Below, one piece after another: positions 40,897-64,000 of a stretch of 64,000 nucleotides of DNA (its first letter is position 1; every line of letters starts with the position of its first letter). A model generated the notes under the pieces. It made no database searches. It saw only the letters and a list, made by a program, of their open reading frames with translations, and was not told the origin of the DNA. The DNA is from Candidatus Shapirobacteria bacterium (GTDB lineage: Bacteria > Patescibacteriota > Microgenomatia > UBA12405): positions 587,107-651,106 of the forward strand of contig JAQWEN010000001.1 of the NCBI GenBank assembly GCA_028704885.1. Direction: 5' to 3'. Both the position numbers and the translations under genes were made by a program.

Positions 40897-43611
40897 TTAG
40901 TTCCCCCATTGCCAATTAGTTAAAACTTTGGCTAAAGATCCAGGAAGATTGAAAATCATTTGAGGATTATGATTAACAACTACGGCTGGATTTAAATTAT
41001 TATTTGATCCGCCTAGATCTCGACCGGAAAAATTAATATCACTAGCGGCATAAAGACTGCCATTAAAAGTTAAGGCAGTGGTATTGGTACCAGCAGCGGT
41101 AATATTGTTGGCAACTAAAATGCCATCGACTTGGGTGACATTGTTGGCAATAGAAATGTTGCCGCTAACAATTATCATTAAGAAGTTTCCACTTTTTAAT
41201 ATATTTCCATTAATAGTTAAATTACCATTAACAAAGAAAATATTATTAGGATCGGAACCAAGATCACTAAGACTGGTTATAGTTTTATCTCCTGTCAAAA
41301 TTGTACCAATACTGTTTTTGTTGTGATATTGACTGAGGAAGTAATTATAATTAGTATTATTAATAACTAATTTAGCAGCGGCAGATTGATAGTACCAAGC
41401 TTGAGCATTACTAAGTGGATCGCGACCAGCGTTACTAATATTAGGAGCGGAAATTAAACCACTGGGACTGATTTTACAATTGGCAGTGGTACAGGTAACC
41501 GGAACTCGATTGGCAATTCCAAAATTACTAACCACTCCACCACCAACCGTCTGCCACCAGGGATCTTGATTAACCACACCAGAAAAATCAACTGTCAATG
41601 AAACACTAGAGTCATAAGGACTAATTGGAGAGGTGCCAGTTAAAGCGATGTTTGACTGACAACTGGAGTTTCCATTAAATCTCATTTTTATAGTAGACTC
41701 ATTCATTTTTATATCATCATTAAAATCTAGAGTATAACTTTTACCCCAAACTAAATCATTTCCAGTACTGGAAAAGGAATGTAAAGAAGTAAGAGTCATA
41801 TTTTTATCGCCGGCAGCCGCATTTTTAAAAGTCAAATTCTTAAAATTAATATCATTAACATAACTGCTAAAACCAATAGAAGGAGAAGGACAATAAACAG
41901 ATGGGTTAGCACCACTGCCATCAAAAATATTTCCAGAAACAGGAACATTACAATTCCAATATTTGAATGAACGATTAGTATCAGTGGTAACGACAGAACC
42001 AGTATAAACATTAACATCAGAAGCTGAAACAGTGATTTTTTGTAAATCGGTCGAAGAAATCTGAGCTGTAGTGATATCAAAAATAGCTGTGACATTATTA
42101 CCGCTTCTACTGATTGATGAATAATTAAATACTTGAGAGCCAAGAGTTAATTGAATATTATTAATATCGGCTCCACCCTGAGCATCAGAATAAGTCACTA
42201 CAAATCTGGCCGTAGTCGGACTGGAAGTACTCGTAAAATCTGATTGACAAATATGATTACGATTATCAGTTTCAGCCGCAACTACAGTATTATTAATATT
42301 TTCAATTACTAAGGTGGAAAAAGCTGGAGGATTATCCCGAACAGCAGAACAAGGAGTATCTAATGTCTGAGCAGCAACACAAGTACCATTAGAACCACTG
42401 CAAGTCCACTTGTATAATCCATCAGATCCAATATTATCTGTCCAATTTATTGTGCCGACAGCACATAAGTTTGAAGCCGGAAGAGAAGAATAAGTGCCAC
42501 CATTAGCAGTTCCGCAAGCACCAATAATGTTATTAACCGGCGTTTTAGTACCAGTACAAGTTCCGCCACAACCATCATCAAAAGTCTGATCAGGGCAGTA
42601 ATCTCCGGAAATTGAACAATCAGCTGGACATTGTTTAACACAACGACATTTAGCTGCATTGGCACCAGAACCAGTACACAACCCAGTTAAATAAACTGGA
42701 TTAGAATAATTGGCTGGATCATCACAATTTCCTCCAAAAGCAGCACAAGTGGCCGCATCGGCTGAACTTCGAGATTCACAAACAAAAGAAGGGGTAATTG
42801 GAATTCGACAAAGACAAGCTGAAGTACTGGGACAAAGACCTGACTTAGTGGTGGTGTTGGCAATGGCAGTCGTACTGCAAGTTCCACCAGCATTAGCACA
42901 AGCCCCACCGGCAGGAGTGTAACAACCAGAAGAAGATGTTCCACAATCAGTGGAACAATAGGAAGAATTTAAACCGGGATTTTTACAACATCTACCAGCA
43001 CCACATACATTATCATTTTCACAAATAATAGTATAATTGTTTATATTTTTTTTATAACATTGCTGCGAGCTATTTCCACAGGGTCTACATCGATTATAAC
43101 TGTACCAACAATCGCCGGTAGGCTCATTTCCCCAAGCCGCGTCACAACTGCTATACCAACCAGCAGAATTATTACAATACAAATTACCAACACAACCAGA
43201 ACCGCCTTTCTTCCAAACATTATCACCAAGACAATTACAATAAGAATCTGAGTGCCACTTACATAGCCCAGTACTATTTCCACCTGGTAAAGGATCAAAA
43301 AGATGACCAGGTTCAGCTACTGTCGAATCAGCCCAACTTGTCCAGGCATAACAAGCAGAGGCTCCAGTTTCAAAACAAGCTGCAGAAGTAATACCATTTA
43401 CACCAGCAGCATAATCAATACCATTAAGGCCATGACAACCAGTAAATACACACTCGGCCTCAGGGCAAGAAGAACTGGAATAGGAAATAGTATAACCGGT
43501 AGGACAGTTTTCATAAATATTAATGCAATAAGCAGAGACATCATCTCTAAAGAGAAAAAAACTTGTGAATAAAAAAACTAAACAAAATAATATTTTTTTA
43601 ATTATGGACAT
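40897..43611 (-). CDS. large secreted protein (904 aa): signal peptide, ~430 aa extremely Cys/Gly/Ser/Thr/Asn-rich region, C-terminal parallel beta-helix-like repeats
   Basis: N-terminus MSIIKKILFCLVFLFTSFFLF; dozens of Cys; C-terminal N/G/T-rich repeats (NGNLTINGNILKSGNF...VANNITAAG). Confidence 0.6.
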   Translation of the reverse strand: MSIIKKILFCLVFLFTSFFLFRDDVSAYCINIYENCPTGYTISYSSSSCPEAECVFTGCHGLNGIDYAAGVNGITSAACFETGASACYAWTSWADSTVAEPGHLFDPLPGGNSTGLCKWHSDSYCNCLGDNVWKKGGSGCVGNLYCNNSAGWYSSCDAAWGNEPTGDCWYSYNRCRPCGNSSQQCYKKNINNYTIICENDNVCGAGRCCKNPGLNSSYCSTDCGTSSSGCYTPAGGACANAGGTCSTTAIANTTTKSGLCPSTSACLCRIPITPSFVCESRSSADAATCAAFGGNCDDPANYSNPVYLTGLCTGSGANAAKCRCVKQCPADCSISGDYCPDQTFDDGCGGTCTGTKTPVNNIIGACGTANGGTYSSLPASNLCAVGTINWTDNIGSDGLYKWTCSGSNGTCVAAQTLDTPCSAVRDNPPAFSTLVIENINNTVVAAETDNRNHICQSDFTSTSSPTTARFVVTYSDAQGGADINNIQLTLGSQVFNYSSISRSGNNVTAIFDITTAQISSTDLQKITVSASDVNVYTGSVVTTDTNRSFKYWNCNVPVSGNIFDGSGANPSVYCPSPSIGFSSYVNDINFKNLTFKNAAAGDKNMTLTSLHSFSSTGNDLVWGKSYTLDFNDDIKMNESTIKMRFNGNSSCQSNIALTGTSPISPYDSSVSLTVDFSGVVNQDPWWQTVGGGVVSNFGIANRVPVTCTTANCKISPSGLISAPNISNAGRDPLSNAQAWYYQSAAAKLVINNTNYNYFLSQYHNKNSIGTILTGDKTITSLSDLGSDPNNIFFVNGNLTINGNILKSGNFLMIIVSGNISIANNVTQVDGILVANNITAAGTNTTALTFNGSLYAASDINFSGRDLGGSNNNLNPAVVVNHNPQMIFNLPGSLAKVLTNWQWGN

Positions 43612-49206: not shown

Positions 49207-49922
49207 TTAACTGCAAGGCTGGATTTGATGATGAGGCGGCGGAGATAGGTGCCAGGGGGGCTACAAGTTATAAGAGTAAGATTTTTTTGATCGAAACGCT
49301 GCTCAAGAACTGAAAGATCGGTAGGTTTGACTTCAAACATTTCATCGACAATGTATTTGTATTGGACGCTATCATAGTCAATAATTATTTCATCGCCCTG
49401 CTCAAGTTTATAAAGAGTAGAAAAAATAGTTAAATAGGATTTTGGATTGAAAAATTGAGGTAAAACGGAATGACCGAAAACAACAGCATTACCAAGTTGT
49501 CCAGGAAGAGCGGTTTGAGGATATTGAATTAAACTTTTTTTTAAGTCCATACTGCCAATAGTAACAACAGCATCTTTAATTTTTAATTTGGGAATAGATA
49601 TTTTATAAGTGGAATTATTATCATTGGAAAAAAGTTGATTATTATCACTGGAATCAGCGATAAACCAATTATTAATTTGAGTGTAATCGGTAGTAACGGC
49701 GCCCAAAATATTTTGAGAACCGTTGTAAGATTTTAGAGATAAAGGATTAATCATCTGACTGAAACTAAGAGAAGATTGAAGCTGAAATTTAAGGATAGGA
49801 AAAATAGCTGAAAGGAAAAAAAATAGACCGACAACCATGAGAAGGATGGCTAAATTTTTCTTTTTAGCAAAAAACCTACTTTTTGGGGAGGGTGGTGATT
49901 TTTTAAGATAAAGATAGCTCAC
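49203..49922 (-). CDS. sortase-family transpeptidase
   Basis: N-terminal TM; catalytic His (VVFGHSV), TLxTC (LTLITCSPPG) and Arg. Confidence 0.75.
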   Translation of the reverse strand: MSYLYLKKSPPSPKSRFFAKKKNLAILLMVVGLFFFLSAIFPILKFQLQSSLSFSQMINPLSLKSYNGSQNILGAVTTDYTQINNWFIADSSDNNQLFSNDNNSTYKISIPKLKIKDAVVTIGSMDLKKSLIQYPQTALPGQLGNAVVFGHSVLPQFFNPKSYLTIFSTLYKLEQGDEIIIDYDSVQYKYIVDEMFEVKPTDLSVLEQRFDQKNLTLITCSPPGTYLRRLIIKSSLAVN

Positions 49923-52090
49923 GGCGATTCATTTTTAACTTCAATAAAAATATTTTTGGGGCTAAAAGGCAAAATATTGAAAATTTTAAAAGTAATTTTT
50001 AAATTATAGTCGTAAACTCGACTAATAGTTTTTTTAATTATCTCTTGAGCTTTTTTGGTAGTCCTACCAGAAATGTTTTTCTTGAGCAATTCGGTATCAA
50101 TTTTAGGTAAAGAAGAGCCTTTAATATTTAAACTGCCGGTAGCTTTATTAGTATCTAATTTGTCGATTTTTAGGGTGAAAACAAAAGAATCAGGATTTAT
50201 TTCTGAATCAGAATAACCGGTCTCTTTGGATAAAAATTGAGCTAAAATTTTATCTTTTAATTCGTTCTTGAAAACAAAAACACTAACTGTAGATTCGGCA
50301 GAGGCGGTTAAATCATCGGTTTCCTCCCCGACTTCACGATTAAGCTCAGTTTTGCCTTTTTTGGTTTGAATAGTTTCTTCAATGGCATCGTTTGAAGTAT
50401 TAAAATCCTGATTTATTTTTTGATCCGCTTCTTCTTTAAGTTTTATAGCCAATTGAGATTCGGCATTAACTTTGTCCTGCTGGCTGACAGCACTAATTTG
50501 ATCTTTAGTGCCACCAGTAAAATCGACATTACTTTTAACAACAATGGATGTTTCGGGGAAATCTTTAAATCTTAAGACAGAATCCTTGGAAATATTAAAT
50601 TCTGGACCAATATCGGAAGCAGAAATAACGGTTTTTACTTGACCAAAATTCATAGTGCCGGTTTCAAAATTGGAACTACTGGAAGCAATTTGGACGGCGT
50701 TAATTAATTCAAAATTTTGATTTTTGGAATCAATTAAAATTGATCCTTTGGGAATATTTTGAACTTTTTCGACTTTATTAAAAATCGTAACTTCACCAGT
50801 GGCTTTATTGCCAACAGTTTTTTGACCAGTAGTTTTTACGGTAACAGAAGAATTAACAGTTATATTTTTTTTGTCGACAGGAATAATTGAAGAAGTAAGA
50901 TCAGCAGCATCAGAATCAAGGGTAATATTAATAGTTTTGTCGAATTCATAGGGAGTAACAAAAAGAATTAAATTGGCTTTGGAAAGTAAAAGAGGAAGAA
51001 GGAGAATAATTAAGACGGCAGGAAAAATAAATAATAAATATTTATTTTTTAATTTGGGTAATTTAAAATTTATTTTTGGGAGCTTAAAAGAAATTGGTTT
51101 TTTTTCTTCTTCAAAACCCTTCTCCACCAAAGGCGGATTCTCCCCTTGATGTAGGGGATAAATTATTTCTGGTTTAGGTAAATCTTTAATAAAACCTAAA
51201 TCTTCAAAAGGAACTTCTTCTAAATTTTCTTCGGGAATTTCGGCTGCTTCTGGCATTTCTTCAACTTCTTCCAAATCTTCAACTGTTTTTATTTCTTCTT
51301 TTTCCTCTGGTTCTTCAATTTCTGGTGACTCAACTGGAGGTACAGCTTGATGACTAGGATTTCCACCACCAATCATTTGGGAAGTAATGGCTTTGAAAAA
51401 AATATTTATCAAATCGTGATCTTGATAAAGTTTAATCTCGGGAAAATGGAGAAAAGTTTCAATATTTTTTTTACCAACCCAAGGAAAATTTTTAAGATTT
51501 TCAATAATTGAATCGTTAACTTGGCCGTAAACATAAATTTGAGGAGGAAGAGTTGATTCCAAATTTAACTCTAACAAAGAATCTTCGACAAGCTGGGCAT
51601 TAAAATCACCATCAAAAACTTTTCTGATTCGATTTTTAATTTTACCAAGATAAATTAGAGATAATTCGAAGGCGTTTGATTCTAAATAAAGATTGATAAA
51701 ACTGGCGGGAAAATCGTCTGGTTTGTTGGATTCTTCAATAATGGCTTCGTCGTTAGACATAAAACCGGATGGTTTTAAATCGAGTTCTTTTAAAAGAGGC
51801 AAAATAACATCGGATCTTTCTTTGGTAATTTTGCCGTCTTGGCCAACCCAGGATGAAGGAATGACTAAGCCAACAAAAATCGGTTCTTGATCTTCGGAAA
51901 TGTCGGCACTAGCGGCAGCACTAGAGAGAGATTCATCGGCGGCTTTTAAAATTGATTGATGATTGTTAATATCACATTCAACTCGAGGGCCAATTGAGGC
52001 GACATAATAGCGGCCATTACCCCAGTTAATTAGAGAAACCAAAATACTGTCGGCTTCAATATAAAATAGCCAAAAACTATTAATACCCAT
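49919..52090 (-). CDS. large membrane protein (723 aa): FtsA/PilM-like actin-fold N-domain (weak), acidic linker, TM helix, large extracellular region
   Basis: N-terminus FWLFYIEADSILVSLINWGNGRYYVASIGPRVECD; EEPEEKEE linker; TM LLFIFPAVLIILLLPLLLS; 4 nt overlap with sortase gene. Confidence 0.5.
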   Translation of the reverse strand: MGINSFWLFYIEADSILVSLINWGNGRYYVASIGPRVECDINNHQSILKAADESLSSAAASADISEDQEPIFVGLVIPSSWVGQDGKITKERSDVILPLLKELDLKPSGFMSNDEAIIEESNKPDDFPASFINLYLESNAFELSLIYLGKIKNRIRKVFDGDFNAQLVEDSLLELNLESTLPPQIYVYGQVNDSIIENLKNFPWVGKKNIETFLHFPEIKLYQDHDLINIFFKAITSQMIGGGNPSHQAVPPVESPEIEEPEEKEEIKTVEDLEEVEEMPEAAEIPEENLEEVPFEDLGFIKDLPKPEIIYPLHQGENPPLVEKGFEEEKKPISFKLPKINFKLPKLKNKYLLFIFPAVLIILLLPLLLSKANLILFVTPYEFDKTINITLDSDAADLTSSIIPVDKKNITVNSSVTVKTTGQKTVGNKATGEVTIFNKVEKVQNIPKGSILIDSKNQNFELINAVQIASSSSNFETGTMNFGQVKTVISASDIGPEFNISKDSVLRFKDFPETSIVVKSNVDFTGGTKDQISAVSQQDKVNAESQLAIKLKEEADQKINQDFNTSNDAIEETIQTKKGKTELNREVGEETDDLTASAESTVSVFVFKNELKDKILAQFLSKETGYSDSEINPDSFVFTLKIDKLDTNKATGSLNIKGSSLPKIDTELLKKNISGRTTKKAQEIIKKTISRVYDYNLKITFKIFNILPFSPKNIFIEVKNESP

Positions 52091-52124: not shown

Positions 52125-53903
52125 CTATTTTAGGACAGCATAGATACGGCGTTTACCAGATCCGGCGGATTCTTCTTTGATAATTTCAAATTGACTAAGT
52201 TGAGATAAATTTTCGACATGAGGGCCAGTGCAAACTTCTTTGGAAAAATAATTTTCTTTGGAACCAATGGTGTAAACAGTAACTATTTCGGGGTATTTAT
52301 TACCAAAGAAAGCAAGAGCCCCCTGTTTTTGTGATTCAATAAAAGGCATAGTTTCAACTATTACTGGCAGTTTTAATTTAATTTGGGCGTTAACCAGATC
52401 TTTGATAGTTTTCAGTTCATCAGTTGTCAGTTTGTCAGGGTGAGTAAAATCAAAACGAATTCTTTCACTAGTAATATTAGAACCGGCTTGCCCGACATGA
52501 TTGCCTAAAATTTTTCTTAAAGCAGAATGAAGTAAATGAGCGGCGGTGTGAAATTTAGTAATAATTTCCGAATTATCGGCTAAACCTGATTTAAATTTAC
52601 CAGCAGATAAAGTTTGTGATTGTTTTTGATGATTTTCTTTGGCTTGATTAAATTCATCAATATTTAAAGTTAAATTATTTTTGGCTAATTCTTCTTGAAT
52701 CATTTCGACAGGAAAACCAAAAGATTCGTAAAGAGTAAAAGCTTCTTTACCAGAGACAGAGTGATTCTTCCCAAGAAGTTTATTAATCTCTGCCAATCCC
52801 TTGTCTAAGGTTTTGCGAAATTTATTTTCTTCAGCTTCTAGAAGAGAAAGTATTTTGTCTTTATTTTGATTTAAAGATGGATATTCCCCACCATAATTAT
52901 CTTGATTGTCCAAAACGGCTTGAGCAATATTAAAAATAAAGTTAGTTTCAATCCCTAAAATTTTTCCTTGTCTAATTGATCTTCTGATTAAACGACGAAG
53001 AACATAACCAGCTTCTTTATTACTAGGCTCGACACCATCAGCAATAATAAAAACAGAAGCTTTGATATGGTCGGCAATAATTCTAATGGCTCGAGTGTAA
53101 TTTTGATCGGAATAATTTTTGCCAGAAATTTCTTCTATTTTTTTAATTATTGGCTGCCAAATGTCGGATAAATAATTATCCTTAAAACCGGATAAAATAG
53201 CGGTGGTTCGCTCGACACCCATGCCAGTATCAACATTTTTTTGAATGTTGGGTGAAAATTTACCAGTTTCGTCTTTATAATAACCCATAAAAACATCATT
53301 CCAAATTTCAATGATTCTCCCCTGTTGACAACCAGTTTCAAATTCGACTGGGCCAGCTTCTGGTTGAGTGTCAACAAACATTTCAGTGTCTGGACCGCAA
53401 GGACCAGCATTGCCAGCTGGACCCCACCAATTATCTTTTTTGGGTAAATAGTGAATATGATCTTCGCTGATGCCAGAATTTAACCATAGATCGTGTGATT
53501 CGATATCTTTGGGGGCATCAACATCACCTTCAAAACAAGTGACGTGCAGATTTTTGGGGTCGATATTTAATTCTTTAGTTAAAAATTGATAACTCCAGGG
53601 AATCATTTCTGTTTTAAAATAGTCACCTAAAGACCAATTGCCTAACATTTCAAAAAAAGTATGATGATAAGTGTCGCCAATAGCTTCAATATCACCAGTA
53701 CGAACACATTTTTGAACATCAGTTAATTTCTGACCAAAAGGATGAGGCTGGCCTAAAAGATAAGGGACTAAAGGATGCATACCGGCAGAAATAAAAAGAG
53801 TAGTGGGATCGTTTTGAGGAATTATACTGGCAGAAGGAATTTCGACGTGACCTTTTGATGTAAAAAAATCGATATATTTTTTTCTTAAATCTCTTGCATT
53901 CAT
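52125..53903 (-). CDS. alaS: alanine--tRNA ligase (short form, 592 aa, lacks C-Ala domain)
   Basis: AlaRS catalytic core and editing domain (HTAAHLLHSAL). Confidence 0.88.
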   Translation of the reverse strand: MNARDLRKKYIDFFTSKGHVEIPSASIIPQNDPTTLFISAGMHPLVPYLLGQPHPFGQKLTDVQKCVRTGDIEAIGDTYHHTFFEMLGNWSLGDYFKTEMIPWSYQFLTKELNIDPKNLHVTCFEGDVDAPKDIESHDLWLNSGISEDHIHYLPKKDNWWGPAGNAGPCGPDTEMFVDTQPEAGPVEFETGCQQGRIIEIWNDVFMGYYKDETGKFSPNIQKNVDTGMGVERTTAILSGFKDNYLSDIWQPIIKKIEEISGKNYSDQNYTRAIRIIADHIKASVFIIADGVEPSNKEAGYVLRRLIRRSIRQGKILGIETNFIFNIAQAVLDNQDNYGGEYPSLNQNKDKILSLLEAEENKFRKTLDKGLAEINKLLGKNHSVSGKEAFTLYESFGFPVEMIQEELAKNNLTLNIDEFNQAKENHQKQSQTLSAGKFKSGLADNSEIITKFHTAAHLLHSALRKILGNHVGQAGSNITSERIRFDFTHPDKLTTDELKTIKDLVNAQIKLKLPVIVETMPFIESQKQGALAFFGNKYPEIVTVYTIGSKENYFSKEVCTGPHVENLSQLSQFEIIKEESAGSGKRRIYAVLK

Positions 53904-58729: not shown

Positions 58730-59353
58730 GTAGAGACGCCATGCATGGCGTCTCTACATTTATTATTTTTTATAATATTTATCTTTGTTCCAGTTTTTAA
58801 TATTATTTTTAATATATTGTTTGATGATTAAATACTCTTTTTCATTTTGAATAATGTGGTCATGAAAACGGGGTTGCCAGGAAAAAAATATGGTTTTTGG
58901 ATTTATTTGACGAGTAGTGGCGGATTTAAATTGTTTTATTACTAATGGAATTGTTTGAGAAGAACGAATAGCTATTCGATGATAATAATAATTATTGTAT
59001 TTTATTGATAGAGACGCATCATGATGCGTCTCTACTGAATTTGACAATGGTTTTGATAGGTTTAATAGTATATGAACATGATTTGGCATAACAATATATT
59101 CATTTAAAATTACATTTGAAAAATGTTTTGGAATATTAATTAAACATTGATTGGTAATAATTCCCATTTTTGATAATTCCATTTTATTGTTAATAATTTT
59201 TCCAAAGAAATTATTATGATTGTAGGTGCAGATAGTGATGAAATAAAATCCAGGAGTAGAATAATCCCAATTTAATAAGCGAGATGATTTTAATTTAAAT
59301 TTGTCAGCAAATTTGGTTGGATTATCGACAAGTGCCATATATGGCGTCTCTAC
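58730..59353 (-). mobile_element. IS200/IS605-family-like minimal element: Y1 HuH transposase gene flanked by GTAGAGACGCC-containing palindromes
   Basis: 28 nt perfect palindrome 58730-58757; partial copy 59334-59353; see the CDS below. Confidence 0.6.
58763..59338 (-). CDS. tnpA: HuH Y1 transposase (IS200/IS605 TnpA / REP-associated tyrosine transposase-like)
   Basis: HuH motif PNHVHILL; C-terminal QPRFHDHIIQNEKEYLIIKQYIKNN resembles the RAYT QRRFW(D/E)H motif. Confidence 0.7.
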   Translation of the reverse strand: MALVDNPTKFADKFKLKSSRLLNWDYSTPGFYFITICTYNHNNFFGKIINNKMELSKMGIITNQCLINIPKHFSNVILNEYIVMPNHVHILLNLSKPLSNSVETHHDASLSIKYNNYYYHRIAIRSSQTIPLVIKQFKSATTRQINPKTIFFSWQPRFHDHIIQNEKEYLIIKQYIKNNIKNWNKDKYYKK

Positions 59354-59367
59354 AATATAAAATTATT

Positions 59368-61116
59368 TTATACTTCGATAACTAAGGGTAAAACCATGGG
59401 TTGGCGGCCGGTTTTCTTGTAGATAATCTCTTCAAGAAAAGCTTGGATTTCTTCACGAATGAAATCCATGTTGGCTGGGGAACTGGTGGCTTGATTAAAT
59501 TTATTAGTAATTTCGAGCTTTAAAAAGTCGATAAGCTCGGTGTTTTCTTTCATAAAGACGAAACCTCGACTTAAAACGACCGGAGCTTTAACTAATTTAC
59601 CGGATTCTTTTTCAATCAAGAGAACAACAGAAAACATGCCATCTTCGGCGAGAGTTTTTCGGTCTCTTAAAACAGTGGTACCAACATCACCGACTCCAAA
59701 TCCATCAATTAAAACTTTTCGAATAGAAATATGGAAATTAGTGTCGACAGCGCCATTGCTATGAAAAGTGGCCGAAGCATCAAAATCGGGTAAAATTACC
59801 TGTTCTTCGGTATAACCTAATTTTTTAGACATTTGTTGATAATCTTTAAGATGTCGATAGTTACCACCGATTGGCAATAAAAATTTTGGTTTTAATAAAT
59901 TAATTAAAAGAGCATGTTCTTTTTGGTAACCGTGACCGGAAACGTGTAATTCTTCTTTTTCACCATAGACCACTTCAGCTCCCATTTTAGAGAGAAGATC
60001 GATCATATTGTAAATGTTAGAAGTTGTGCCAGGAATATAATCTGGAGAAGAAAAGATGACTTTATCGCCAGCTTTTACTTTTATTTTGTGTTTACCCATG
60101 ATCATTTTACTGAGAGCCGAATCTGGTTGACCAGCAAAGCCGGCAACTAAGAAAAGCAATTTGTTTTCGTTGAAGTTTTTGACTCTTTCGACGGGAACGA
60201 TATCAGTATCGTTTAAAGTTAAATAACCTAAATCTTTGGCAATTTTAATAGCTCGATCGACAGAAAAGCCGACAATAACTATTTTTCGACCAACACTTTT
60301 GCCGTATTCAATGGCTTGAGTCCAACGAACAATATTACTGGAAATTGAAGTAACAAAAACGCGACCTTTAGCGGAAACAATTTCTTGTTTAAAATTTTGA
60401 GCAATAGAAGATTCTGAAGGCGACCAACCTTCTTTATCGGCACCTAAACTATCCGACATTAAGGCAATGACTTTACCAGTTTGACCAACTCGAGCTATTT
60501 TTTGATAATCAGCGCCTTTGCCGTCTAGTGGAAATAAATCAAATTTGAAATCAGAACCATGGTAAAAAATACCCATAGGAGTAGTGATGGCAAAATGAAA
60601 AGTATCAGGAATGGAATGAGTAACGCGAATTGGGTCAATAATAAAAGGACCTTTGGTTATAGGTAAGGTGGTTTCATCATAAACCTGAAGATTAGCGCGG
60701 ATTTGAACTTCACCGAGTCGGGCTTCAATAAAAGCAGCCGCTAGTTTAGGAGCGTAAACTGGAATATTTTGGCCTAAAATCGGCAGAATAAAACGGACAG
60801 CTCCAATATGGTCTTCATGGCCATGAGTAATAAAAATACCTAAAATTCGGTCTTTTTTGTCTTGTAAATAATGAGTATCGGGAATTTGAAGATCGACACC
60901 AAAGGCATCTTCTTCAGGAAAACCGACTCCACAATCAACGATAATAATTTGACTTTTGGCAAGATCGCCATTGGGAATGAACTCATAAACAAACATGTTT
61001 TGAGTGACATCGCCAAAGCCCCCGAGGGAGCTGATTCGCACCGAATCATTACCGGATTTGTATTCTCGGACTTGATTTGGAGCATTAATAAAATTTGTGT
61101 TTTGATTTTTTAACAT
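59368..61116 (-). CDS. rnj: ribonuclease J
   Basis: Metallo-beta-lactamase HGHEDHIG + beta-CASP + RNase J C-terminal domain, 582 aa. Confidence 0.88.
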   Translation of the reverse strand: MLKNQNTNFINAPNQVREYKSGNDSVRISSLGGFGDVTQNMFVYEFIPNGDLAKSQIIIVDCGVGFPEEDAFGVDLQIPDTHYLQDKKDRILGIFITHGHEDHIGAVRFILPILGQNIPVYAPKLAAAFIEARLGEVQIRANLQVYDETTLPITKGPFIIDPIRVTHSIPDTFHFAITTPMGIFYHGSDFKFDLFPLDGKGADYQKIARVGQTGKVIALMSDSLGADKEGWSPSESSIAQNFKQEIVSAKGRVFVTSISSNIVRWTQAIEYGKSVGRKIVIVGFSVDRAIKIAKDLGYLTLNDTDIVPVERVKNFNENKLLFLVAGFAGQPDSALSKMIMGKHKIKVKAGDKVIFSSPDYIPGTTSNIYNMIDLLSKMGAEVVYGEKEELHVSGHGYQKEHALLINLLKPKFLLPIGGNYRHLKDYQQMSKKLGYTEEQVILPDFDASATFHSNGAVDTNFHISIRKVLIDGFGVGDVGTTVLRDRKTLAEDGMFSVVLLIEKESGKLVKAPVVLSRGFVFMKENTELIDFLKLEITNKFNQATSSPANMDFIREEIQAFLEEIIYKKTGRQPMVLPLVIEV

Positions 61117-61155
61117 AAAAAATTCTTGTGATTATATATATAAATAATAATAAAA

Positions 61156-61183
61156 TCTGAACGGCAACCACAAAATGTTCAGA
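61156..61183 (-). terminator. hairpin (TCTGAAC...GTTCAGA) followed on the minus strand by a T/A-rich run, downstream of the Lon-like gene
   Basis: 7 bp perfect stem. Confidence 0.4.
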
Positions 61184-61358
61184 GTAAATAAATAATTCTT
61201 ACTTAATTTTACTAAATAATTTCCAAATTAAATGGAATGATTTATTGAGGGATTAAATTGCTTGACCGTTTCTAAAACCAAATTGGGTGAACGAAGTCTT
61301 TAACCAAAAGTAAGATTCTTTAAAGTCATTTTAACAAAATTAAGAGTAAAAGGCAAAT

Positions 61359-62420
61359 TTACCATTGAGGCAAGAAAGTTTTGACGTTAGATTCGTCGAC
61401 AATCACCTGTCGGCTTTTACCTTCTAAAATGACTTTGGCAACCTTGCGACACATGCCTTCAATATTACGTTGGAGAGTACGAACACCAGCATCGAAACCA
61501 AGAGGACGGACAATTTGAGGCCATAAATTGTCGCCGATTTTTAAATCATCAGAAGTTAAACCGGTACTTTTTAGAGCTTTTGGTAAAAGATAATTTTTAG
61601 CAATAACTTCTTTTTCTTCGTCAGTGTAAGACGGCATTTGAATAATTTCTAATCTGTCCATAACAGCAGTGGCAATTCGAGAAGTGTTGTTGCAGGTGGC
61701 ACAAAAAATGACTTGGGAAAGATCGACTGGATAATCAAGATAATGATCGACAAAATGACCATTTTGTTCTGGGTCGAGAAGCTCAACGAGAACACCCATG
61801 ATAGTGTTTAAAGCGTCGTCGGCAACACGATCAATTTCATCTAACAAAATAACTGGATTGCGGCTTTTACAATTGACGAGACCTTTGATAATCTGACCTG
61901 GTTCAGAATCGGGACGAGTACGGGAATAGCCACGAAGATAATGAGCATCACCAAGGCCACCGAAAGGAATTCTGACAAGTTCGCGACCCATGACATTAGC
62001 AATTGATTTGGCCATAGTGGTTTTACCAGTACCAACCAAACCGACAAATAAAATAATTGGAGCTTGAATTGTTTCGTTGGGATTGCGATTTTTTTGCAAA
62101 GACAAAACAGAAATATATTCCAAAATTCTTTCTTTAATGGTTTCCAAACCATAGTGCTCTTGGTCTAATTTTTCTTTGGCAAAACGTAAATCTAAAATAT
62201 CTTTGGTTTCATTGAACCAAGGAATGGCAATAATCCAATCAATATATTTAGAAGCATTGTAATAATTTTGCCAAAAAGTTTCTTCGTTTTGAGAATTAAT
62301 TTCGAGTTGAGAAAAAAGTTCTTGTAATTTTATACCTAAATTATCGGGTATTTTGACAGCAGAAACTTTATCAACAAGTTTTTTAATCGCCTCTTTGGTG
62401 GTTAGAACAGTGGAATCCAT
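61359..62420 (-). CDS. Lon-type AAA+ ATPase module without LAN or S16 peptidase domains (353 aa)
   Basis: Aligns to the Lon AAA+ region: HYGLETIKERILEY, Walker A GLVGTGKT, Walker B ILLDEID; stop where the Lon peptidase domain would begin. Confidence 0.7.
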   Translation of the reverse strand: MDSTVLTTKEAIKKLVDKVSAVKIPDNLGIKLQELFSQLEINSQNEETFWQNYYNASKYIDWIIAIPWFNETKDILDLRFAKEKLDQEHYGLETIKERILEYISVLSLQKNRNPNETIQAPIILFVGLVGTGKTTMAKSIANVMGRELVRIPFGGLGDAHYLRGYSRTRPDSEPGQIIKGLVNCKSRNPVILLDEIDRVADDALNTIMGVLVELLDPEQNGHFVDHYLDYPVDLSQVIFCATCNNTSRIATAVMDRLEIIQMPSYTDEEKEVIAKNYLLPKALKSTGLTSDDLKIGDNLWPQIVRPLGFDAGVRTLQRNIEGMCRKVAKVILEGKSRQVIVDESNVKTFLPQW

Positions 62421-62524
62421 TAGAAAAGTATAAGCTATTTAGACACTAATGTCATGGCTAAAAACTTTAAAAACTTCATTCTAAAATAAAACGGAAAAAT
62501 TTTGTATTTTTTAAATCAATCTAT

Positions 62525-63115
62525 TTATTTATTTTTGCTTATATTATTGTTTTTAATCCATGATATGAATTCATCAAATACTTTAGGTTTCCATATCTTA
62601 TTGTCGTAGGACGTTTGTTCTTCTTTTGTAAATTCTGAATATGTTTTTTTATAATTTTCTGGTATAAAAATTCGATCAACTTCACGTACTTTGTTTATAT
62701 TATCTATTTTTAGACTGTATGAGACTATTCCTTTTAATTTTCCGTGAAAAATTTTAATTGTATTTTTGTTTTTATAACATATTACATTGTCAACTTCCCA
62801 AGTCCTATCCTTATTTCCTTTAAGTAGTTTTATTATTCCGTTAGCACCAATATATTTTTCAGCATATTTAACATATGTCTTAGGAAATCCATTAAGTCCA
62901 TTAATATAAAAAGCTGCATCAATAACAAACACCGGCTTCTTAATTTGACTATATGCGAATTCGGCTTTTTCTTTGGCAATTTCTTCAACATCTTCCGATC
63001 TGGATTCAGGTAGTTCTAAAGCAAATTGTTTTAAACCTATTCCATTAAGTTTAAAAAAATCATTTGCGTGATTAAATTTCCATGAATTTGATGTTGCAAA
63101 ATATAATTTGTTCAT
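62525..63115 (-). CDS. non-canonical purine NTP pyrophosphatase (Ham1/RdgB/ITPase family)
   Basis: N-terminus LYFATSNSWKF (ATxNxxK) and FIPENYKKTYSEF motifs. Confidence 0.65.
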   Translation of the reverse strand: MNKLYFATSNSWKFNHANDFFKLNGIGLKQFALELPESRSEDVEEIAKEKAEFAYSQIKKPVFVIDAAFYINGLNGFPKTYVKYAEKYIGANGIIKLLKGNKDRTWEVDNVICYKNKNTIKIFHGKLKGIVSYSLKIDNINKVREVDRIFIPENYKKTYSEFTKEEQTSYDNKIWKPKVFDEFISWIKNNNISKNK

Positions 63116-63122
63116 TTTATTT

Positions 63123-64000
63123 TTATGGATATATTTTTTTATTACGAAAAGGATATTTTAATATAAAAGAAAAAGTTCCAATTAAACTTCCTTCTAAACT
63201 TTTTAAGACATAAGACGGAGGTAGAGGATATTTTTTAAAAAAACTTTTTAATAAGTTTTTTATTACATATAGATGGTGCCCTAATAAACCCCAATAGAGA
63301 CTACGAAAATCAAAATGTTTAGCGAAAATATAAAGTTGATAGGCAGAATTGCCAACACCATAAGTATATAGTTTATTTTTGAGAGATTTTTTATCTGTTG
63401 GATGTTTATGATATATGATTGCGGTTGAATCGTATTCAACATCATAACCGGCTTTAATGACTCGATAAACAAATTCCAAAGAATTACCATGTCCGATTGG
63501 AGAACCACCGCCAAGAAAAGTAGCATAAGGGCCAACTTTATCAAATACTTTTCTACTTATCATATTGTTTGCTCCGGCAGCAATTTTATTAATTGGCCAA
63601 GGAATCATTTTGTAATCTTTTATTAAATCTATATTTTTATATAGTTTTGAATTAATACCTTTACTTAAACCACCTTTTTTTTCCCATAAATTGGCAACGT
63701 TATTTTTATCGTTGAAGATGCAAACATTTCCAGATACATAACCCAAATTTTTATTTTTTGTAAAATGTTGTAAAAGTTTTTCTACCCAATTTTTATCCTT
63801 TATTATTACGTCATCATCTGTATTAATAATATATTCACCATTAGAAACTTTCATTCCTGTATTTAAGGCAAAAGATTCACCTTTTCTATTTTCTTTAATA
63901 TAAACAACTGGATATTTATTACAAAGATCTAAAGTTGAATTGTCTGTTGAATTATTATCAATAATAACAACTTCAATATTAGGATCTCCTAAAATGTAAA
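63123..64000 (-). CDS. family 2 glycosyltransferase, 5'-truncated by window end (reading frame stays open to position 64000)
   Basis: Hand translation upstream of the track start gives ...VVIIDNNSTDNSTLDLCNKYPVVYIKENRKGESFALNTGMKVSNGEYIINTDDDVII (GT2 DxD region); no stop before window end. Confidence 0.7.
   Translation of the reverse strand, partial: YILGDPNIEVVIIDNNSTDNSTLDLCNKYPVVYIKENRKGESFALNTGMKVSNGEYIINTDDDVIIKDKNWVEKLLQHFTKNKNLGYVSGNVCIFNDKNNVANLWEKKGGLSKGINSKLYKNIDLIKDYKMIPWPINKIAAGANNMISRKVFDKVGPYATFLGGGSPIGHGNSLEFVYRVIKAGYDVEYDSTAIIYHKHPTDKKSLKNKLYTYGVGNSAYQLYIFAKHFDFRSLYWGLLGHHLYVIKNLLKSFFKKYPLPPSYVLKSLEGSLIGTFSFILKYPFRNKKIYP

Follow-up and report, generated by a model that had tools for sequence, protein, structure and literature searches.

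A 64,000-nucleotide stretch of the Candidatus Shapirobacteria contig JAQWEN010000001.1 (hereafter the window) carries a complete gene for a 353-residue protein that corresponds to the ATPase motor of LonA proteases without the peptidase. The open reading frame (ORF) at 61359..62420 on the minus strand runs uninterrupted from ATG to TAA, and its product belongs to a large, old and conserved family of Lon-derived, ATPase-only proteins of the candidate phyla radiation (CPR, Patescibacteria). Judging from the residues that this family has kept and those that it has changed, the protein is probably a working stand-alone ATPase of LonA descent, which would form a ring and serve as a non-degradative, ATP-dependent remodeller or chaperone with changed client specificity. 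Among open-access papers and bioRxiv we found none that combines Patescibacteria or CPR with Lon protease, or that describes a protease-less Lon. We rate the family as so far undescribed.

A LonA-type motor without LAN or peptidase domains

Only two Pfam families are recognized in the protein, the AAA core at residues 123-261 (3e-17) and Lon_lid at residues 284-337 (3e-11). The same scan gave no match to Lon_C (PF05362), the S16 peptidase with its Ser-Lys dyad, or to the LAN or substrate-binding domain (PF02190). Residues 9-339 align with positions 251-572 of the 795 positions in TIGR00763, the 'lon' (endopeptidase La) model, with a score of 326 bits where the curated cutoff is 608, and the score with NF008053 is 243 bits, below a cutoff of 891. 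Because it fails the definition of Lon and scores below the curated lon cutoffs, the protein should not be called a Lon protease. Its motor is unmistakably of LonA type. The best matches in the PDB are all LonA chains, which cover residues ~11-350 with E values of 1e-65 to 1e-77 and are headed by B. subtilis 3m6a (9e-77). An AlphaFold monomer model computed from a 60-sequence alignment (pLDDT 90.6, pTM 0.84) matches LonA structures in Foldseek with TMq values of 0.82-0.87. The protein spans a three-helix bundle (NTD-3H), which in LonA sits atop the ATPase pore (PMC7239648), the large AAA+ subdomain and the lid. Its chain ends at the protease linker, three residues beyond the point where alignments with Lon stop.

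A preliminary description of the window, made from the letters alone, had seen here a stand-alone Lon AAA+ module without LAN and S16 domains, which stops where the peptidase starts and has intact Walker A and Walker B motifs. The Pfam, TIGR00763 and PDB alignments, the end point, and the motifs GLVGTGKT (residues 127-134) and VILLDEID (residues 190-197) all agree with that account. It had also placed about 100 residues ahead of the HYGLE motif; the preceding region is indeed present, but comprises ~88 residues, with HYGLE at residues 89-93.

Comparison with known proteins places the window protein close to LonA while setting it apart in architecture. It shares 37-46% identity with the LonA proteases of E. 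coli, Y. pestis and B. subtilis and with human LONP1, and has in common with them the NTD-3H and a complete HCLR-clade AAA+ module, including Walker A and B, sensor-1, arginine finger, sensor-2, bridging Glu, the Tyr of the pre-sensor-1 beta-hairpin, and Lon_lid. LonA in addition has a LAN domain, a coiled-coil region and the S16 Ser-Lys peptidase, whereas the window protein lacks LAN and S16 and begins to align with the lon model only at position 251. Where LonA has the Walker A sequence GPPGVGKT and a Tyr-Ile grip, the short family has GL.G.GKT, the motif x-P-[E/D]-A-E, a rewritten pore-loop 2, and a free, conserved C-terminal tail. The engineered E. coli Lon AAA+ fragment 6n2i has near-identical boundaries (query residues 18-347 correspond to chain residues 17-336; Foldseek TMt 0.87), but is a laboratory truncation of a protease, whereas the window protein occurs naturally, is maintained by selection and has altered pore loops. 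Lon subfamilies A, B, C and BA carry the ATPase domain and then the protease domain in one chain (PMC9569914). LonC and LonBA/LonB are thus architectural variants with altered accessory parts that keep ATPase and protease together (PMC9569914), while the window protein is ATPase only. ClpX and HslU belong to the HCLR clade of AAA+ proteins, to which Lon has also been assigned (PMC9569914), but ClpX shows only remote sequence similarity to the window protein (ClpX model E 0.006), for which no peptidase gene was found nearby. Neither an IGF loop nor other traits of the HslU type were noticed in it, though no search was aimed at them.

Conservation and selection

The domain architecture taken by itself, with the middle 40% of the lon model matched at a score below its cutoff, would suit a remnant in decay or, as the preliminary description had offered as one of two explanations, a lon pseudogene truncated recently. 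This explanation is refuted, and we give it practically no weight. The best 120 database relatives, from Shapirobacteria and Woesebacteria metagenome-assembled genomes (MAGs), are all 352-353 residues long at identities down to 71%, and none has a Pfam match to Lon_C or LAN. When one genome was searched for each GTDB species, 46 species proved to carry the gene, with identities of 56-94%, and in every complete case the end of the ORF aligns with the last residue of the query. The catalytic residues are invariant (see below), and members of this deep clade can be as little as ~42% identical to one another. Estimates by the Nei-Gojobori method gave dN 0.048, dS 0.64 and omega 0.075 between the window gene and that of locus L001; omega is 0.03-0.08 for the closest pairs, and its median is 0.18 for pairs with dS below 1.5. 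The gene is under strong purifying selection.

Had the gene been truncated recently, relatives with the same flanking genes might have been expected to carry a full-length lon. The opposite was found, in that all relatives with the same flanks have the short form. Nor do the frameshifted protease remnants suspected in the spacer downstream of the gene exist: the spacer has stops in all six frames and no ORF, and tblastn with four S16 and four LAN domains revealed no remnants of either in the spacer, in the rest of the 64-kb window or in 50 related loci. The only recurrent weak match of these queries lies in rpsO and is taken as chance. A hairpin that had been proposed in the spacer is not significant, since its folding gives z = +0.97 and 170 of 200 shuffled sequences fold at least as well. 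The coding strand has no terminator-like site at the spacer, and no Rfam family reaches its gathering threshold anywhere in the window.

The ATPase site and its predicted coupling to the pore

Residues were mapped to the numbering of E. coli and Y. pestis Lon in an alignment of 80 sequences, comprising 45 of the Shapirobacteria type and 35 of the Dojkabacteria type; the E. coli sequence used reproduces every numbered residue quoted in PMC7239648. Invariant in 80 of 80 sequences are K133 and T134 of Walker A, D194 and E195 of Walker B, sensor-1 N245, the trans-acting arginine finger R256, sensor-2 R314 (equivalent to R542) and the bridging residue E218. All residues expected to serve ATP binding and hydrolysis are kept invariant in this alignment. 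Walker A has a derived signature in the short clade, GL.G.GKT in place of the canonical Lon GPPGVGKT.

In Lon, Tyr456, Glu458, Arg396, Tyr294 and Trp297 couple the nucleotide site to pore-loop 1 (PMC7239648). The Tyr456 position (Y227) is Tyr in 76 of the 80 sequences and Phe in four, the Glu458 position (D229) is Asp in 77 and Glu in three, and the Arg396 position is Arg in 67 and Lys in 12. The equivalents of Tyr294 and Trp297 in NTD-3H (Y59 and W62) are kept, and the pre-sensor-1 hairpin segment DPEQN...DHY.D...DLS is conserved in the family. The residues predicted by homology to link hydrolysis to pore-loop movement are therefore kept as well.

Rewritten pore loops and a fixed C-terminal tail

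The loops that would face the central pore have changed. In pore-loop 1, the Lon sequence RRTY[VI]GAMPG has become S-R-x-[H/Y/N/R]-P-[E/D]-A-E-P-G in the protease-less family. Tyr398 and Ile399 are the aromatic-hydrophobic pair of this loop that grips the substrate in Lon. In the Shapirobacteria group (n=45) the Tyr398 position is occupied by His (22), Tyr (14), Asn (6) or Arg (3, including the window protein), and in the Dojkabacteria type by Glu, Ser, Tyr, Phe or Ala. The Ile399 position is Pro in 41 of the 45, among them the window protein, and Leu, Ile or Val in the Dojkabacteria type. Acidic residues follow: Gly400 is replaced by Glu or Asp in the Shapirobacteria group and by Asp in the Dojkabacteria type, and Met402 by an invariant Glu in both. 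The Arg395 position is Ser in the former and Pro or Ser in the latter. Thus, the positions that in Lon grip the polypeptide, Tyr398/Ile399 and their surroundings, align with a conserved acidic motif. Loss of the pore-loop aromatic holds for the window protein (Arg) and its nearest relatives but not for the whole family, in which 14 of 45 members keep Tyr and 22 have His. The segment after Walker B, in the region of pore-loop 2, is similarly altered, with a conserved 'ALNTI/LLNDV' across the family in place of the 'MRGDP' of Lon.

The C-terminus is conserved as well. The last four residues are LPQW in 120 of 120 close relatives of the window protein. The largest Dojkabacteria group ends in L[PA]DQGPLS-COOH (79 of 89 sequences, the remaining 10 being single-residue variants), and another subclade in [YF][ML]PE[GD].G[TV]LS-COOH (30 of 30). 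The tails of each subclade are fixed in length and sit where Lon has its '[FY][LI]G' interdomain linker.

A protease-less family across two CPR groups

The family extends far beyond one lineage, spanning Shapirobacteria and Woesebacteria (Microgenomates) as well as Dojkabacteria. An exhaustive HMMER search of cluster representatives retrieved further short forms of 343-507 residues at 45-57% identity. In a distance-based neighbour-joining tree of 200 Lon-type AAA+ modules (35 short forms and 165 others), all protease-less forms group together with no S16-bearing Lon among them. The protease-less clade, with 33-35 representatives, was recovered in 176-178 of 200 bootstrap replicates (88-89%), and its inner core of 31 in only 32%. 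The derived motifs follow the same division. Walker A of the form G[LVI]xGxGKT occurs in 32 of 35 short forms versus 1 of 165 other modules, and the pore-loop sequence '..EPG' in 27 of 35 versus 2 of 165; conversely, the canonical Y[VIL]GAMPG is found in none of the 35 short forms versus 91 of the 165 others. A profile built from the non-Shapirobacteria members added at least 120 more clusters of 366-632 residues, none with a Pfam match to Lon_C or LAN, which where named are assigned to Dojkabacteria or 'Patescibacteria group'. The N-terminal extensions of the longer members contain no recognizable domain. In databases, members of the clade go under 'AAA family ATPase' or the erroneous label 'ATP-dependent Lon protease'. 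Full-length Lon representatives ranked by AT-rich amino-acid composition, among which a canonical CPR Lon was sought, proved where named to come from Mesoplasma, Spirochaetota or Pseudomonadota.

Taxon names follow the MAG records, and several of these are plainly mislabelled. Loci L004-L008, L010, L011, L013, L016, L018, L027, L028, L032, L033 and L037 have a Shapirobacteria-type gene and synteny and yet are recorded as 'uncultured Gammaproteobacteria', 'Pseudomonadales' or 'Candidatus Methanoperedens', evidently placeholders or mis-assignments.

In the tree, the protease-less clade lies closest to tandem Lon-type AAA+ proteins with two to four modules (P0121, P0123-P0133 and others). P0121, a 1113-residue protein from Dependentiae, has three Lon-type AAA modules followed by a Lon_C peptidase. 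In these proteins, too, the Lon AAA+ module has been rearranged in an unusual way, but they retain the S16 peptidase and a Walker A of canonical type. To our knowledge, tandem-AAA Lon proteases stand outside the usual Lon classification.

Genomic neighbourhood

Related genomes have the order dnaK-dnaJ-nusA-infB-x-rpsO-pnp-LonAAA-rnj-proS-ftsK, with all genes co-directional and with variable small genes (0-4 before rnj) inserted on either side of the ATPase gene. Of 50 loci, 44 encode PNPase and 40 encode RNase J. The ATPase gene follows pnp on the same strand after a gap of typically 15-68 bp (8-105 bp overall). The arrangement rpsO-pnp-LonAAA-...-rnj also occurs in L082 (8 bp after pnp), in L084, a Dojkabacteria genome, and in L086, the proteins of which are only ~50% identical to the window protein. 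A link to pnp and rnj is thus common to three subclades, with ~50% identity between them, but does not extend to the whole family. No peptidase gene adjoins the ATPase gene in any locus examined.

In the window, the genes that follow the ATPase gene on its strand are those for RNase J, a 191-residue ORF, prolyl-tRNA synthetase (ProRS), FtsK and a helix-turn-helix protein. Upstream lie a Ham1-like gene and then a GT2 glycosyltransferase gene that runs off the end of the window. Counterparts of these two are absent from the 50 related loci, where pnp is directly upstream, so we regard Ham1 and GT2 as a local insertion specific to the window. The PNPase gene is not visible within the window itself.

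Proposed function and alternatives

We propose that a LonA ancestor lost its LAN domain and S16 peptidase while its three-helix bundle and AAA+ module were kept. The resulting protein would assemble into a Lon-like ring and hydrolyze ATP; as is established for AAA+ proteins, an arginine finger is meaningful only in an oligomer, which makes a Lon-like, ATP-hydrolyzing ring the most likely state. Preservation of the coupling residues suggests that the ATP cycle would still move the central loops. With the Tyr-Ile grip lost, acidic residues gained and no proteolytic chamber, the ring would then most likely remodel or pull on a specific macromolecular client without degrading it, rather than carry out general unfolding and degradation. 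Basic partners are plausible clients. We infer more weakly that, in lineages with the gene between pnp and rnj, the client could belong to the RNA decay or ribosome-associated machinery. Proteolytically inactive Lon reportedly retains chaperone-like activity in yeast mitochondria, which renders a remodeller role plausible. The preliminary description had proposed, as its other explanation, a lineage-specific Lon-derived unfoldase or chaperone. This general category stands, but the family is broader than one lineage and, because the pore loops have been rewritten, classical unfolding by threading is not assured.

Several points weigh against our proposal. The protease ring of Lon normally holds the hexamer together, and the isolated module was modelled here as a monomer. 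The term 'unfoldase' in its strict sense may be wrong, given that the threading aromatic is variable or absent. Other subclades place the gene in different surroundings: after folD-glyA-thyX-dcd with a convergent VirB4-like gene (the largest subclade), after yidC-jag-rplY, divergent from groES, or between recJ/tsaB and tsaE. Where the gene does adjoin pnp and rnj, the adjacency may reflect nothing more than inherited gene order.

The main rival to the remodeller proposal is a split AAA+ protease, in which the ATPase would feed a separately encoded peptidase, either a free S16 domain or an unrelated chamber (ClpP or HslV, for example), and dock on it through the C-terminal tail. ClpX and HslU are precedents for an ATPase polypeptide of its own that binds another protein, and they and the proteasomal ATPases dock on their peptidases in the manner envisaged here. 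Tails that are fixed in length and nearly invariant within each subclade, together with the retained machinery for moving the pore loops, are consistent with such an arrangement. However, tblastn found no S16 or LAN domain within ~10 kb in the 50 loci or in the 64-kb window, and Pfam scans found none in seven further contexts. Halves produced by gene fission usually stay next to each other. The threading Tyr/Ile pair is also not conserved. On this balance we consider a split protease unlikely.

A role in RNA decay is a second alternative. The ATPase could be a component of an RNA-decay or ribonucleoprotein (RNP) module that remodels PNPase/RNase J complexes or RNP substrates, taking the place of a degradosome helicase partner. 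The co-directional order rpsO-pnp-LonAAA-(0-4 small genes)-rnj with its short gaps in 46 Shapirobacteria-type genomes argues for this role, as do its recurrence in L082, L084 and L086 despite the divergence of their proteins and the position of one other subclade after jag (KH/R3H) and rplY. Set against this are the locations of the largest subclade after thyX-dcd and of others beside groES or recJ/tsaE. Moreover, nusA-infB-rpsO-pnp is an ancient conserved string, so that retention of the ATPase gene beside it may be historical. An acidic pore loop speaks against direct threading of RNA, and in the window two unrelated genes separate the ATPase gene from whatever lies upstream. We view this role as a minority possibility. 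A stronger version seems quite improbable to us, namely that Lon has turned into a non-proteolytic motor integral to RNA decay in Microgenomates and Dojkabacteria, encoded in an rpsO-pnp-lonAAA-rnj unit, with acidic pore loops that engage PNPase/RNase J complexes or basic RNA-binding proteins. If true, it would be an AAA+ 'degradosome ATPase' without known counterpart, and the organisms might lack any Lon-type protease.

The preliminary description also mentioned that Lon-like ATPases such as BrxL occur in phage defence. BrxL of BREX systems and other defence AAA+ proteins do share a P-loop ATPase with the window protein, and PADLOC models for DolB (the best, at 48 bits), IetA and TRIP13 show weak, generic AAA similarity to it. 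PADLOC gave no BrxL match or other specific match, compared with 326 bits to the lon model, and the neighbouring genes are of housekeeping type and have no PADLOC matches. Unlike defence islands, the gene holds a stable chromosomal position across dozens of species. An anti-phage function, BrxL-like or otherwise, is thus very improbable, and the remodeller remains the reading that we favour.

Mycoplasma and similar genome-reduced bacteria retain Lon, which is there one of just two ATP-dependent proteases that are essential (PMC7737663). That a large, ancient CPR family keeps only the motor shows that selection can maintain this motor for a task beyond feeding its own protease. As a natural counterpart of the artificial truncation 6n2i, the protein should be a convenient system in which to ask what the Lon AAA+ ring does alone. 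Metagenome resources list hundreds of family members under the name 'ATP-dependent Lon protease', and metabolic reconstructions of CPR organisms may for that reason assign Lon proteolysis to them in error.

Feature coordinates and other observations

The mapped features are collected in Table 1. The promoter-like site ends 7 nt before the ATG at 62420 with no Shine-Dalgarno sequence visible between them, and the transcript is possibly leaderless. Promoter-like sites are no more numerous in this region than chance would give.

Table 1. Positions in the window of the ATPase gene, its functional elements and adjoining features.
Feature	Positions	Strand	Basis
Complete coding sequence, 353 aa + TAA; protease-less, LAN-less LonA-type AAA+ ATPase	61359..62420	(-)	Profile, PDB, AlphaFold model, Foldseek
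NTD-3H three-helix bundle, residues 8-65; Y59 (= EcLon Y294) and W62 (= W297) conserved	62226..62399	(-)	PDB alignment, AlphaFold model
Walker A GLVGTGKT, residues 127-134; K133/T134 (= K362/T363) invariant	62019..62042	(-)	Alignment
Pore-loop 1 region RGYSRTRPDSEPG (Lon: RGHRRTYIGSMPG)	61896..61934	(-)	Alignment
Walker B VILLDEID, residues 190-197; D194/E195 (= D423/E424) invariant	61830..61853	(-)	Alignment
Segment after Walker B (pore-loop-2 region); Lon '..MRGDP..' replaced by family-conserved 'DDALNTIMG'	61791..61829	(-)	Alignment
Pre-sensor-1 beta-hairpin region; E218 (= bridging E447), Y227 (= Y456), D229 (= E458) conserved	61710..61775	(-)	Alignment
Sensor-1 Asn245 (= N473), invariant	61686..61688	(-)	Alignment
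Trans-acting arginine finger Arg256 (= R484), invariant in 80 sequences	61653..61655	(-)	Alignment
Alpha-helical lid (Pfam Lon_lid), residues 264-340; sensor-2 Arg314 at 61479-61481 invariant	61401..61631	(-)	Pfam, alignment
C-terminal tail TFLPQW-COOH; start of Lon's AAA-to-protease linker ([FY][LI]G...)	61362..61379	(-)	Tail comparison
Non-coding spacer to rnj, 242 bp	61117..61358	(-)	Six-frame translation, tblastn, RNA fold, Rfam
RNase J gene (rnj), conserved downstream neighbour	59368..61116	(-)	Pfam, synteny
Ham1/ITPase-like gene	62525..63115	(-)	Pfam, synteny
Promoter-like ATGACA-17-TATACT, 10/12 matches, consensus match only	62427..62455	(-)	Best in region

The GT2 reading frame continues past the end of the window, and the 243-residue ORF listed for it is truncated by that end (Ham1 and GT2 region 62525-64000, minus strand). 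The 191-residue ORF (58763-59338, minus strand) has no Pfam or PADLOC match. Its motif 'MPNHVHILL' we take to be reminiscent of IS200/REP-type tyrosine transposases. Homologues lie around rnj in L003, L004, L008 and L023 at differing positions and orientations, which suggests a small mobile gene. In the related loci, the interval between infB and rpsO, where many bacteria carry rbfA-truB, holds a conserved ORF of 299-442 residues with no Pfam match (L024, 5566-6465; L082, 4210-5472; L084, 3012-4340; L086, 3246-4268).

Elsewhere in the window, two large ORFs on the minus strand, 40897-43611 (904 residues) and 49919-52090 (723 residues), match no Pfam family at E <= 1e-5. No tRNA gene was found in the 64 kb, and ribosomal-protein leaders likewise have no Rfam match there. 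The alanyl-tRNA synthetase encoded at 52125-53903 (minus strand) has only 592 residues, comprising the catalytic core and the SAD domain, and appears to be a shortened version that lacks the usual C-terminal region. From the sizes and order of its ORFs, the window appears to include large ribosomal-protein and rpoB/rpoC clusters.

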